The notes: generated from the sequence alone by a model not told the origin. DNA of 64,000 nucleotides from an uncultured bacterium (GCA_965368975.1 CBDUPA010000012.1:83540-147539), one strand, 5' to 3'. Counted from the stretch's first letter, positions 47,201 to 52,258 are shown. Made by a program: numbers and translations.

Positions 47201-48330
47201 TGATCGTATTGGCGGGTGTCTCGCTCTGGGCCTTGACGCGCCATCGGTATCGTCAGCTGCAGGCCGCGATCGAGACGATGGCATCGGCCGTTCATCGCAT
47301 GGTGTCCGGCGGCAGTGACTCTAGCCTGGTGGCGGCCGGGGCGTCCTTGCGTTCCTTCCTGGAGACCCGCCTGCGCCTGACCGCGGCGCTGGCCCGGCGC
47401 GGCTTTTCGCTCCACGTATTCGAGCAAGCGGCGGTGGATGAAGCTCTGGGTCTGCGCTTGCGCGAGAGCGTCGACATCCAGCTGCACAAGATGATGCGCC
47501 GAGCCGAGAGCCTCAAGGTACGTCCCGGCGGAGCCAGTGGCAACGAGCGCGATGATCTGCGAGATCTCTTTGTGCGGCGCGCCGGAGAACGCGTCGAGAA
47601 GCTGATCGATCCCGACCACCTGCTCGAGTACTACCACACCCGCGTGCGTCCGGACGACGTACCGGTGCAGGAGTTCATCGAGCAGGTCGGTGGTCTCCAA
47701 GATTGGCGCCGAACCGCGTGCCTGTCCGATTCCACGGCGGTCATGGCATGGGGACAGGAACTCTTCACTACCCTGGTCGACAAACCGATCACGGAACTCG
47801 ACTACTTCACCGAGGCGGTGGGGGAGCAGTTGCGGCGATTCGTCCTGCGCAATTACTCGAATATCGGTTTCGGGGCCAAGTTCCTGGGCTACGAAGGGCT
47901 GGATCCGGATGGCATCCGCCTGGTCGCCGATGCTTCCCTGGTGGCCGACCAGGCCTTGCTGCATGCCTATGCCTGGGCCGTGGAGCAGCAGGAAGACCAT
48001 GCCCGTCGCAACCGTGAGGTGAGTCGCGCGGCGCGCACGCTGGAGACGATCGCGGCCAAGGTCCGACCCAATGCCGCCTACATGCTCTCCTTGGTCCAGG
48101 GCGTGCGAGCCCACAGCGTACACAACCTGAAGCGCTTCGAGTCGTTCCATGATCGACCCGAGGGTCCGGACTCGGACGCGATCCACTACCTGACGGGCTA
48201 TGAAGAGAAAGCCAAAGAGTTTTACCAGTGGATCAGCGCCGAGGATGCCGCGCCGCGCGCACGGCAGGACGAAAATACTACGACTGCCAGCTCTGGGGAG
48301 ATAGAAGATCATGGACCCGACGTGGATTGA
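44275..48330 (+). CDS. large membrane-anchored protein, probable degenerate tubulin/FtsZ-like paralogue
   Basis: 1351 aa with ATGA overlap to the upstream gene. The N-terminus GIVVGVGRFGLAVLEKL mimics the G-box strand. LTVFVVGDMSEPFTRIKMQQVL sits where a T4 signature strand would be, but lacks GGTGSG. Two adjacent hydrophobic helices: FGLLAWGLLAPITAVLPARLL...WWALPLVIVLLIVLAGVSLWAL. Confidence 0.4.
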   Translation: MTNLVYPAPGIVVGVGRFGLAVLEKLGEDWQQLKLSGAGPSCENLRLFWVHPEQDDEGCWREIELPELNTANYSEDGDWPSIVLDFVLLRTMGLIRYRHGIYQVASPRDCGPVRTADLEYPETKDKEDPEAEEAKKDREEDKRLVRRRFFDWLDLAPDPVEAAERLKKKAEREPVLHLFISPLLHRVRQGHSPWILMAAILRCSCLRAGRDPSPWRWVREQEAQGKIDQEAIQTVCEDRDRFLDRFAPAPLKPSPQPEVDEGEVEGRKTDVWKFEETEIVIPKIFRPQEGDPEPPIDTFHLLRENWQVSGWATDLETQKQQGFKPLQVSHFRLGLFDHCQHRESREPELTKAFEKRLKCTSRLLHRGLVRLWVDLKREQVEEQALATGERRHRLLDEALQQSLKILEKLVVDPLKDAPGKEKEGECLSDLLRCPVDLPDQPTQFLRNQCFDPDSRWLRDSALERRLVALGLGDPWRAAPRRRGLFQEVILEKQAEGGCAPGESDDRPRCTEIAKEPKSAGEGRGRFRKQLNQTVRELLDFSYLGRYRERLTRTPPRLTVFVVGDMSEPFTRIKMQQVLKDVHSELLRAFSSVFELNRDGFDRALSVMPILWMPHPADPFGGEEPLKTRLEEAVIIDAVHGIRRWVEAVLPGARRRISQIFINSRVTDNAVLSMDDSVNQTRDFLSFQLRNDLSRDDWLRRTAVGPGGDDYFASFACCEIEFPAERAREYLANRIARDCLRQLQVEAEWRGREAVKVPDPSSMEELVGEASSRLQQETEREAKGLTDAIWNALPQGESSRRCMPRKEILSHFSERFESRLWADITRLWRQLTQRRGHMDDFVDSLRHQISRQLHGALPDIRRQSDDEVYQASGQGIQAALSRLQERRWQAFKQLQEAEEERLQAEEACQQNQRPNRGRLSRARLAVTEAAKAKPDCGPQRFGLLAWGLLAPITAVLPARLLESELGWWALPLVIVLLIVLAGVSLWALTRHRYRQLQAAIETMASAVHRMVSGGSDSSLVAAGASLRSFLETRLRLTAALARRGFSLHVFEQAAVDEALGLRLRESVDIQLHKMMRRAESLKVRPGGASGNERDDLRDLFVRRAGERVEKLIDPDHLLEYYHTRVRPDDVPVQEFIEQVGGLQDWRRTACLSDSTAVMAWGQELFTTLVDKPITELDYFTEAVGEQLRRFVLRNYSNIGFGAKFLGYEGLDPDGIRLVADASLVADQALLHAYAWAVEQQEDHARRNREVSRAARTLETIAAKVRPNAAYMLSLVQGVRAHSVHNLKRFESFHDRPEGPDSDAIHYLTGYEEKAKEFYQWISAEDAAPRARQDENTTTASSGEIEDHGPDVD

Positions 48331-51300: not shown

Positions 51301-52258
51301 GGAGACCTCGAGCCGAGAGAAACTCTCCGTCGCCGCCGACTCCGACTCGTCGGCGCACTGCGAGGCGCACGGCTATGCTCTGTATGAAAAGGAACCGGTT
51401 CTGCTGGGGCGGCACAGCATCGAACTCGGCCTGGTCGCGATCGAACTGAAGCTACATTCGTTGGCGGTCTTCCGACTCGACAGGTCGACCTTCGAGGTGC
51501 GCGCGCGGGAGATTCACGCGCAGCGAGCGCAGAGCGAGTTTCCGCCGGCAGAACTGCAGACAATCGCGGTCTCGTTGCACCCCAATCCCCAGGAATCGAG
51601 CCCATCTGCTCCGAAGCTGCACCTGGCGGCAGCGCGCTTGCTCACCGCGCTGTTGCGCTTTGTGCTGCCGCTGATCTATCGCAACGTCCAGGATCGCTTG
51701 GAGGTCGCGTTGATCTTCCCGGGGGAGGACGGCGACAAGAGGTTCACAGCACCGTGGGATTCGGAGCTGGAGTCCGAGGCGGCCCTCTACCTCTTCGACC
51801 TGCACCAGGGGGGAGATGGCACTGCGCGGGCTCTGTACCGGGATGGCGTCGAGCTACCGCTGCGCTTCTGCCGACACTTCCTGGCCACGGACGTGGACGT
51901 GGAGCGGATCTTCCGGCTCCATGGGCACGAGAGTAGCTTGCAGGAGGTCAAGGTAACCCATGGAGGTCCCGAGGCGGTTGGGAACGATGCTGAGCCAGAG
52001 GACGAGATACTGGAAGCGTGGCCTTGGCAAGAGATCCGTGCTGGGTTGCTGGCCTGGTTGGATAGTCGTCTTCATCCGGAGTCCGTCTCCTGGGCCGAGG
52101 CCGAAGCGTCGGCTGCTGAGGAGGTTACGGAGGATACTGAACTAGAGGCAGAAGACCTGGAGGCAAGTGCCCCGGGCGATCACGCACAGACCGCTGAAAG
52201 TTCCACCGTCGAAGAAGCCACCGCCGAAGAGTCCACTGCTGAGACGGAAGAGGCTTGA
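48311..52258 (+). CDS. polytopic-membrane-anchored SF2 helicase-like protein (MrfA/YprA/DrmA-like N-lobe) with Cys-less DUF1998-like C-terminal domain
   Basis: 1315 aa with a 20-nt overlap onto the upstream gene. The first ~330 aa contain about 7-8 hydrophobic helices. Walker A: IVLAPEGSGKTTLAIL. Motif II region: GLVVVDDVESFAGAVEIHAQLAFRRLRLLF, compared with YprA-type 'VV-DE-H-Y-G-FGSHVA-VLRRLRR'. C-terminus: ...LLTALLRFVLPLIY...AALYLFDLHQGGDGTARAL, compared with DUF1998 '-LYD--PGG-G'. Confidence 0.6.
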   Translation: MDPTWIDVAWQVIWQAIAGVLVWLDSQSLYVILGCVGGLLSFVYGLAYGLQWRLVKFLEPRPEQTAPLGRWEAMSSLLAPVTVVFFVLEGITRSLHRRVRGSKEPDWKVKHSSSAKNHGKPILIATLGPTFLLAGVFTAVVYWLARLGEPLFAEAFSHAGPYPFWESKLLSALLVLEAPPDIFPLASHPKVSLVLSLLFWTALWWTCGNLLRGFVYRTDLQRNLAGRRDTALPLWTSWFGVKKLTEAGEAYRGWAAWLVTAVILLTVGAGMTLNPAPGSTTAGVVDGLEPAVQVSPSALAVALILALSWVLHLHLKGKHFEPEPKSRREAIVPSEGLPGWQRVVAKLEERYRLTPPEFRGERPLLAPAFTVPTTALQVLSPLVPELLQEPEQSPEIRQTPPLNVMQAKVLESLSLFGYVHLQPPTTGDVLELSSSGPGAVEDRSGLSERHQIVLAPEGSGKTTLAILAAANNTLVHARATLLITRSGEQADELQLKFQEVVEPSTVRWNLRFRRMGQDFASDLSRDIVPDIVISSLHELTTGMLDNAEVYADFLRNVGLVVVDDVESFAGAVEIHAQLAFRRLRLLFRQVSEVEQLGEANAPLMLILGVDSMKEMAAWAKSLCGVQAVVRNFPAAMAETDQSKDSASEGSPSGDRSSGDSTSGDRASEEGARQQKWLPFSALQSHQGRQLTVPEVVAACEAAGVPWCYRPCGDGRRHRGRGPLLLEQEPEHATASPRDACVIFLDGRWSEVRRELQRSPWAGYQSRRQEVIFLVLVDPEEALACGELDPDLGFEASHDHVRPDLAEELVTLPLPVVRPPSSHVLQSHLLSDLVQSWFEVKDLVDTFEVPVAHRLRYLQSQGMLLMEERSDVQAALKEYEAKVYVRALAASLAIDEAGGSANDGIIEYPPLDKVRQVELVARSAVTIRNRADHTLLRTVEADSAAWIYYPGRIFEDSRGRFVVVGRVRRGDRLGAIEVEPVLHDNFSSPRRWFERIEPETSSREKLSVAADSDSSAHCEAHGYALYEKEPVLLGRHSIELGLVAIELKLHSLAVFRLDRSTFEVRAREIHAQRAQSEFPPAELQTIAVSLHPNPQESSPSAPKLHLAAARLLTALLRFVLPLIYRNVQDRLEVALIFPGEDGDKRFTAPWDSELESEAALYLFDLHQGGDGTARALYRDGVELPLRFCRHFLATDVDVERIFRLHGHESSLQEVKVTHGGPEAVGNDAEPEDEILEAWPWQEIRAGLLAWLDSRLHPESVSWAEAEASAAEEVTEDTELEAEDLEASAPGDHAQTAESSTVEEATAEESTAETEEA

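Follow-up and report, generated by a model that had tools for sequence, protein, structure and literature searches.

The window analysed here, a 64,000-nucleotide (nt) stretch of DNA from an uncultured bacterium (GCA_965368975.1 CBDUPA010000012.1:83540-147539), encodes a protein in which a polytopic membrane domain is joined to a predicted ATPase of MrfA/YprA type; we refer to it below as the fusion protein. Its gene is the fourth and last of a co-directional, translationally coupled and conserved operon that also encodes a vWA protein, an FtsZl1-type tubulin-like GTPase and a large protein, here called protein X. YprA/MrfA helicases are known as soluble motors of repair or defence, and we know of no function for the FtsZl1 tubulin homologs, which were described in 2010. 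The fusion protein descends from the YprA/MrfA family, and we propose, with roughly even confidence, that it is a membrane-tethered nucleotide switch, or a slow clamp or motor, of MrfA fold that serves the FtsZl1 system and not a processive repair helicase.

Architecture and motifs of the fusion protein

The gene and its parts are located in the window as follows.

48311..52258, plus strand: gene 4, encoding the fusion protein, a predicted membrane-anchored MrfA/YprA-like superfamily 2 (SF2) ATPase of 1315 amino acids (aa); open reading frame (ORF), Pfam, AlphaFold2 (AF2) and Foldseek
48311..49255, plus strand: polytopic membrane domain, aa 1-315, with about seven predicted transmembrane (TM) helices
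49328..49399, plus strand: NTR-like helix and beta-strand, aa ~340-363; element order, AF2 and MrfA analogy, putative boundary
49658..50203, plus strand: RecA1 lobe, aa ~450-631; Pfam DEAD, hhalign to DruE and conservation
49673-49699, plus strand: Walker A, APEGSGKTT, aa 455-463
49988-50011, plus strand: motif II, VVVDDVES, aa 560-567
50247-50301, plus strand: 15-nt tandem repeat, 3.7 copies with 85% matches; Tandem Repeats Finder (TRF)
50327..50677, plus strand: reduced RecA2-like lobe, aa ~673-789; AF2 beta-alpha-beta elements and conservation
50714..51580, plus strand: WH-like helical (aa ~802-886), OB-like beta (aa ~904-995) and CON-like antiparallel-sheet (aa ~1025-1090) elements; AF2 element order, putative boundaries
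51623..52069, plus strand: MZB/DUF1998-like domain without zinc knuckle, aa ~1105-1253; sub-threshold PF09369 in relatives and alignment
52085..52255, plus strand: acidic low-complexity tail, aa ~1259-1315; sequence

The ORF begins with ATG and its frame is unbroken over the full 1315 aa. Kyte-Doolittle windows yield seven to eight hydrophobic segments, all within aa 6-315, and an AF2 model of aa 1-335 made with 24 homologs (pLDDT, the predicted local distance difference test, 82.5; predicted template-modelling score, pTM, 0.80) contains seven long helices at aa 5-25, 29-58, 79-99, 128-147, 189-215, 249-273 and 296-314, in agreement with an earlier claim that the hydrophobic N-terminal region is TM. 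A conserved PL..HP motif occupies aa 184-189. Read by eye, the loops are strongly basic at aa 96-121, 212-254 and 315-330 and acidic at aa 148-190 and 274-296, which fits an N-out/C-in topology that would leave the ATPase part in the cytoplasm. The hydropathy and the model together show a predicted inner-membrane protein with about seven TM helices and a cytoplasmic C-terminal part. No channel-like fold was detected for the TM domain, and in the model a low-confidence linker of ~130 residues joins this domain to RecA1.

The fold of the cytoplasmic part supports the assignment to the family. An AF2 model of aa 320-1265 (pLDDT 77.3, pTM 0.82) has four MrfA entries as its top Foldseek matches (E 2.7e-24 to 8.6e-16, TMt 0.59-0.60), with Hel308 next in the ranking (E 2e-9); MrfA is thus the closest match of the cytoplasmic part. 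The model superposes on MrfA over 577 residues, and the full-length Foldseek alignment covers the WH/OB/CON region. MrfA has the published domain scheme NTR-RecA1-RecA2-WH-OB-CON-MZB (PMC7797055). The predicted elements of the fusion protein run from a helix and strand through RecA1, a linker, a small RecA2, a helical and a beta element and a long antiparallel sheet to a helical/beta C-terminal domain, and this modelled order follows that of MrfA, including its canopy architecture.

Within RecA1, Pfam finds DEAD only (aa 446-583, E 2.7e-7), and NCBIfam adds a weak match to the DECH helicase model TIGR03817 (aa 531-626). Walker A is followed by PDIVISS (motif Ic), motif II, the FAGAVEIHAQLAFRRLRLLF block directly after it, the HAQLAFRRL block, and GVDSM where SAT is expected. 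The DExH of motif II (DELH in MrfA) is not kept, and DDVE stands in its place. Aligned by hhalign to DruE, a helicase encoded nearby in the window (P-value 0.008), the family pairs APEGSGKT with TGTGSGKT, PDIVISS with PDILLTN, VVDDVESFAGA with VVDEIHTFDGA and RRL with RRL; in other words, APEGSGKTT, PDIVISS and FAGAVEIHAQLAFRRL match YprA-type RecA1 equivalents in DruE, among them TGTGSGKT and LVVDEIHTFDGA...RRLKRRL. Beyond RecA1, the 15-nt repeat codes for the SGD-rich part of the RecA1-RecA2 linker (aa ~636-669), which is disordered in the AF2 model (pLDDT <50, model residues 317-350). The RecA2-like lobe carries a YRPCGDGRR block and a motif-VI-like WSEVRRELxRxxWAG, in which the R..R..RAG of the family reads WAG. 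Pfam Helicase_C has no match in the fusion protein nor in any of 24 family members scanned.

The MZB-like domain has the core LYLFDLHQGGDGTARAL at aa 1159-1175. In a multiple alignment with genuine MZB domains (DruE, P0132, P0133, P0135 and P0138), LFDLHQGGDGTARAL lines up with their FD..PGG.G core; the hhFD..PGG.G core and the next helix are kept, and the CxC..GCxxC knuckle is deleted. The C-terminal region of the fusion protein holds one Cys, and family members hold 0-4 scattered Cys. PF09369 (MZB/DUF1998) is present below threshold in 11/24 relatives (best E 0.0014, model positions 1-62 of 80), and relatives scanned individually score 12.9-17.4 bits against a cut-off of 24.2. The C-terminal extension is longer in many homologs, for a total length of up to 1900 aa. 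The fusion protein therefore departs from the definition of its family on three counts, namely DExH, the PF09369 threshold and the four-Cys motif.

These features were in large part anticipated by a preliminary description of this DNA made from its sequence alone. The Walker A that it called intact reads APEGSGKTT; the motif II that it called altered keeps DDVE in 43/44 family sequences; the YprA-type FAGAVE..RRL block that it called conserved matches DruE by hhalign and includes H575 and R582, present in 44/44; and its Ser/Gly/Asp linker with a 15-nt period is the TRF repeat that follows RecA1. It had also described a DUF1998 core devoid of zinc-binding cysteines beside a 2165-aa helicase that has them, which the alignment bears out, since the core is retained with its four-Cys knuckle deleted and the neighbour, DruE, has both a scoring MZB domain (E 8.3e-11) and the cysteines. 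Alignment to PF09369 and the YprA family, which it had suggested as a check, gave a divided result: the RecA1 motif blocks align to DruE, and PF09369 stays below threshold.

The family is rare and belongs to uncultured soil and marine bacteria. A word-indexed search returned 24 proteins at 34-83% identity to the fusion protein, and phmmer, run exhaustively over 1.84 billion cluster representatives, returned 122 matches with E<=1e-3, of which 67 reach E<=1e-30. In GTDB, with one genome per species, there are 29 loci, every one in a metagenome-assembled genome (MAG), from Thermoanaerobaculia/Acidobacteriota, Bradymonadales/Lujinxingia, Myxococcota and 'Multivoradales'. Conservation was counted over 44 family sequences of 30-55% identity. 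K461, D563 and D564 are each conserved in 43/44 and E566 in 42/44; H575, R582, R709, R716 and R753 are each conserved in 44/44; and the four-Cys cluster is absent from all 44. Position 760, in the motif-VI-like RAG, is Arg in 28/44 sequences and Trp in the sub-clade of the fusion protein. Motifs kept in 43-44 of 44 sequences at such identity are not due to chance, and the same conservation marks DDVE and the Cys-less MZB as fixed traits under selection rather than decay.

A conserved operon with FtsZl1

The three genes upstream of the fusion-protein gene are the following.

37639..40362, plus strand: gene 1, 907-aa vWA protein; Pfam VWA_2/VWA, sequence and hydropathy, syntenic in 24 related loci
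40403..44278, plus strand: gene 2, 1291-aa FtsZl1-type tubulin-like GTPase; Pfam PF13809, E 8.8e-41
44275..48330, plus strand: gene 3, protein X, 1351 aa, no known domain; ORF, Pfam, sequence and family alignment

The vWA protein has a signal-like N-terminal segment, an extracytoplasmic vWA domain, a TM helix at aa ~706-731 and a cytoplasmic tail. Its VWA_2 match (E 1.4e-5, Pfam score 26.1) is slightly below the cut-off of 27, and the DxSxS of its metal-ion-dependent adhesion site is intact (VIDDSGSM, with DDSGS at aa 48-52). The FtsZl1 protein, encoded on the same strand as the fusion protein and in one operon with it, comprises a Tubulin_2 domain at aa 25-373 with an AGGTGSG signature, a long helical C-terminal region and an acidic tail. 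The ORF of protein X overlaps gene 2 by 4 nt at its start and the fusion-protein gene by 20 nt at its end, and the protein has a TM hairpin at aa ~942-987. The junctions between the four genes either overlap or are closely spaced. Of the four operon products, three or more are anchored in the membrane.

Protein X has no relatives in the PDB by sequence. Its N-terminus (PGIVVGVGRFGLAVLEKL) recalls the T1 loop region, rich in glycine, of the neighbouring FtsZl1, and Tubulin_2 matches weakly in 3/18 of its orthologs (E 0.022, aa 664-739). We did not accept a degenerate tubulin as its identity, as hhalign to the FtsZl1 family was non-significant and gave only a 21-residue G-rich N-terminal match; it may be either a tubulin paralog that has degenerated strongly or an unrelated protein.

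The order vWA, Tubulin_2, X, fusion protein, lipoprotein recurs in every homolog contig examined (L001-L006 included) and, with Tubulin_2 upstream of the fusion-protein gene, in 24/26 genome loci with enough upstream DNA, L013 and L018 being the exceptions. In locus L018, ~7 kb are inserted between X and the fusion-protein gene. The fifth gene (for example L001:13930-15138) is found in nearly all related loci; its product is a lipoprotein of 350-535 aa that carries an L-x-G-C lipobox and has no Pfam domain. By tblastn this gene is absent from the whole window, and it is likewise missing from L036, which carries a relative of the fusion protein at 83% identity. Where the lipoprotein gene stands elsewhere, the window and L036 have two conserved convergent genes for small membrane proteins.

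52263-53174, probable start 53084: small gene 1, N-terminal TM segment, no known domain
53095-53649: small gene 2, N- and C-terminal TM segments, no known domain

These two genes are conserved in L036 at 64% and 73% identity, and positions 52260-53800 of the window have a GC content of ~53%, compared with 62-70% elsewhere.

Lower-scoring phmmer matches are also polytopic at the N-terminus and fall into four clades.

Clade (a): GxGRT (Walker A K->R) and DDVD
Clade (b): GxGR(C/S)T, canonical DELHE and C-terminal HExxH/Peptidase_M90
Clade (c): GK(S/T) and EDIE; includes P0132
Clade (d): four-Cys MZB and HExxH, with or without TM segments

The sister clades with Arg in Walker A comprise P0088, P0095, P0096, P0099, P0103, P0108 and P0109 (loci L037 and L042-L052) together with P0098, P0112 and P0118 (L038). 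A C-terminal PGEG..GDLGR.W....G...DL.W.RH motif is common to many K->R-clade proteins. The genes of the distant clades follow Tubulin_2 and an X homolog in L038, L039 and L040, and in L037 at a distance of 7-10 kb; in clade (a), 7/7 metagenome loci with upstream sequence have the tubulin and/or X before the gene. A hidden Markov model (HMM) of protein X finds equivalents in the distant operons (E 1e-19 to 1e-48 overall, 1e-19 to 1e-37 in L037-L040), and the family HMM aligns the TM region of the distant relatives too. This aligned TM region and the shared synteny indicate that both the TM-YprA fusion and the trio of FtsZl1, X and helicase are ancient.

Several distant forms are intermediate between the fusion protein and standard helicases. 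P0132, named 'DUF1998 domain-containing protein' by NCBI, and P0133 are TM-fused and have a Pfam-scoring MZB with four Cys, and DELHE is kept in the TM-fused P0098, P0102 and P0112. Through these MZB- or DELHE-keeping proteins, the fusion protein is tied to DUF1998 helicases by transitive homology. The central claim of the preliminary description, that a DUF1998/MrfA-type helicase is fused to a membrane domain, is accordingly upheld by fold, motif conservation and intermediates; the operon context had escaped it, and the DruE to which it compared the protein is an unrelated neighbour.

Proposed function and alternative readings

In MrfA, the OB-CON-MZB canopy closes over single-stranded DNA (ssDNA) on the RecA lobes (PMC7797055). 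On our proposal, the fusion protein would be a nucleotide-dependent, membrane-tethered subunit of an envelope-spanning FtsZl1 complex. ATP would be bound through the strictly conserved GxGK(S/T) loop, and slow ATPase activity would open and close the OB-CON-MZB canopy on a ligand, most plausibly single-stranded nucleic acid at the membrane. Engagement of this ligand would in turn be linked both to the FtsZl1/X assembly and to the partners in the periplasm, the vWA protein and the lipoprotein. Fast, processive unwinding is disfavoured because the catalytic Glu is changed to Asp, SAT to GVDSM, RecA2 is trimmed, the RAG Arg is lost in the sub-clade and the zinc knuckle is deleted. A switch or slow clamp is favoured because of these motif changes and because the Walker A Lys is replaced in sister clades of the same operon type. 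Of the two functions floated in the preliminary description, we lean, from the sequence, to a regulatory or translocase-dead protein in preference to a membrane-coupled DNA motor, on account of the K->R change in the sister clades and the Trp at the RAG position. As for the system as a whole, conflict/defence or envelope-associated nucleic-acid handling is its most likely role and the least secure part of the proposal.

A number of findings weigh against this proposal or loosen its footing. The hhalign P-value is weak alone, yet consistent with the fold evidence; searches of the PDB by sequence with the family profile and with the RecA region returned nothing relevant, kinship to helicases being visible via Pfam profiles and fold and not via PDB sequence searches; PF09369, with its gathering cut-off of 24.2, has no match in the fusion protein; and both AF2 models were built on 24 sequences only. 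Asp can at times substitute for Glu in motif II, so the ATPase may be fully active. The case for nucleic-acid binding is weakened by a net acidic cytoplasmic part (K+R 89 vs D+E 131) and by an operon in which no nuclease or DNA-metabolism gene is linked. Two loci, L013 and L018, keep the X, fusion-protein and lipoprotein genes with no Tubulin_2 or vWA gene directly upstream. Most related loci have ordinary genes on their flanks and not defence islands, with some conflict-type neighbours (SIR2 in L037, RelA_SpoT/HD in L040), and among viral contigs no relative of the fusion protein was found.

Among the alternatives, the fusion protein may be a pseudo-helicase that merely anchors or adapts FtsZl1 filaments to the membrane, within a membrane-remodelling machine that has no nucleic-acid ligand and no nucleotide turnover. 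We hold this to be unlikely. It would account for the membrane anchors of three or more of the four operon proteins and for the lipoprotein encoded fifth in other loci, it matches the prediction that FtsZl1 operons remodel membranes (PMC2875224), and it sits well with eroded catalytic motifs, a lost zinc site, the existence of K->R clades and an acidic surface. The P-loop and the acidic pair of motif II are, however, under strong purifying selection in this clade despite an overall identity of 30-40%, and the glycine-rich loop is kept even in the K->R clades, which suggests that nucleotide binding still matters; an OB-CON-MZB canopy of ~500 residues would also be needless for a simple anchor.

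Still less probable in our estimate is a fully active, membrane-coupled nucleic-acid motor that would move 3'-5' along ssDNA, either tethered to a seven-TM channel or feeding it. Such a motor could pull in, expel or intercept DNA, by analogy with ComFA/ComEC or FtsK, with FtsZl1 as its track or scaffold. Its best argument is that the Walker A Lys, the first motif II Asp, H575, the RR block, R709, R716, R753 and R757 are invariant or nearly so and that the modelled protein preserves the whole DNA-entrapping canopy architecture, on a polytopic rather than a single-helix anchor. Set against these are DDVE for DExH in 43/44 sequences, the loss of SAT, a RecA2 that is reduced and unseen by Pfam, and the loss of the RAG Arg in the sub-clade, while the K->R sister clades in the same operon type imply that the shared role needs no canonical hydrolysis. 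Nor does the TM domain resemble a known channel, the cytoplasmic domain is net acidic, and the linked genes include none for competence, conjugation or nucleases.

We rejected a gene-calling artefact, in which sequencing or assembly error would have merged a membrane-protein gene with a soluble-helicase gene, as almost inconceivable: its sole hint is the low-confidence linker between the TM domain and RecA1, and it is effectively refuted by an uninterrupted frame, by the same fusion in >40 independent assemblies and in distant clades, and by a single family HMM that spans both halves in distant relatives.

Beyond the switch or slow clamp that we favour for the fusion protein itself, we entertain, as a doubtful extension, that FtsZl1, X and the membrane YprA-type ATPase form an unrecognised envelope-spanning machine that couples a polymer of tubulin type to a nucleic-acid clamp or motor tethered to the membrane. 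It might, for instance, detect, seize or transport DNA at the inner membrane under phage attack, under predation or in the course of DNA exchange. If true, cytoskeleton-dependent prokaryotic systems would gain a new functional class, and FtsZl1 its first assigned partner activity. The ancient syntenic pairing of FtsZl1 with a YprA-like protein is in any case a testable handle on the function of FtsZl1 systems. It widens the YprA family, too, to include membrane-anchored members that may act as switches, and the variation found in nature (DDVE, K->R, the lost zinc site) maps the dispensable features of that family. Since the system occurs in Acidobacteriota, Bradymonadales and Myxococcota that are uncultured, it would have to be reconstructed heterologously.

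Neighbouring genes and known systems

Other genes of the window include the following.

6301-9306, plus strand: TIR-TPR protein
9319-10647, plus strand: FHA-GGDEF protein
10353-12473, plus strand: SMC_N/AAA_23 ATPase
53802-63900, minus strand: operon of three genes, as follows
53802-55967, minus strand: UvrD/GajB-like helicase
55964-62461, minus strand: DruE, 2165 aa; PADLOC DruE1 3.6e-99, MZB E 8.3e-11, MTES_1575-like nuclease match
62458-63900, minus strand: type IIG restriction-modification-like gene; PADLOC REase_MTase_IIG E 3.9e-76

The gene trio at 6301-12473 looks like a candidate conflict or signalling module. The minus-strand operon, in which no match to the DruH model was seen, may be an unusual Druantia-like arrangement. 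We considered and rejected a single system made of the fusion protein and DruE: they lie on opposite strands, DruE has its own synteny, and none of the related loci contains DruE, which is thus unrelated to the fusion protein. The LolA, SecDF and TGT genes of the window point to a Gram-negative chromosomal setting. Lanthipeptide-dehydratase-like genes occur split and in reversed order on the plus strand, with Lant_dehydr_C at 33592-34695 followed by Lant_dehydr_N at 34699-37464; the pair ends 175 bp upstream of the vWA gene. Beside a related operon, L003:15309-19367 (minus strand) encodes a 1352-aa fusion of a Toprim/topoisomerase with a RecQ helicase, with Toprim, Topoisom_bac, DEAD, Helicase_C, RecQ_Zn_bind and HRDC domains.

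The closest known counterparts of the fusion protein are Bacillus subtilis MrfA (PDB 6ZNP/6ZNQ/6ZNS) and M. smegmatis SftH. Relative to both, it has gained a 315-aa polytopic membrane domain; its motif II reads DDVE, not DELH, and GVDSM stands for SAT; RecA2 is shortened and unseen by Pfam; and the four-Cys knuckle is deleted. Unlike MrfA, it lacks an MrfB exonuclease partner; its operon encodes a tubulin homolog, a vWA protein and protein X instead.

YprA helicases play a central part in defence systems, and the four-Cys cluster is lost in the homologs of Dpd (Bell et al. 2025 preprint). The fusion protein has the family helicase fold in common with DrmA/DrmB (DISARM), DruE (Druantia), DpdJ (Dpd) and the ARMADA, BRIGADE and TALON helicases, and DpdJ provides a precedent within the family for loss of the cysteines. 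It differs from the defence homologs in lacking BrxA-like, beta-barrel ZBM, MarR-like and nuclease domains and methyltransferase, PLD or DruH-type partners, and in being membrane-anchored. The PADLOC models for DrmA, DruE and DpdJ have no match to it, its sole PADLOC match, to RTasNERD-Hel, being weak (E 5.6e-4). Neither tubulin, FtsZ, vWA nor transmembrane forms are mentioned in the 2025 YprA census or its supplements, and our literature searches turned up no account of a YprA homolog that is fused to a membrane domain or linked to a tubulin.

ComFA/ComEC, FtsK/SpoIIIE and SecA are membrane motors for nucleic acids or polymers and are functional analogues of the fusion protein only. Generic RecA lobes are all that is common to them; no channel-like TM fold was detected in the fusion protein, and its linked genes are others.

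The operon itself has closer counterparts. FtsZl1 operons were predicted to remodel membranes (Makarova & Koonin 2010, PMC2875224), and systems of tubulin, vWA and GAP1-N2 GTPases were read as conflict systems (Kaur, Burroughs, Iyer & Aravind 2020, PMC7159879). A helicase or SF2 ATPase partner of tubulin/vWA is unmentioned in the 2010 paper, its supplements and the 2020 paper. The partners described for those systems include GTPases, kinases, OmpA or HSP70, whereas here they are a membrane-fused YprA-like protein, protein X and, in related loci, a lipoprotein. Common to all are a Tubulin_2 gene beside a vWA gene, several membrane-associated partners and a predicted role at the envelope. The operon described here thus counts as a vWA/FtsZl1 system as Makarova & Koonin 2010 understood it and is thematically related to the systems of Kaur et al. 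2020.

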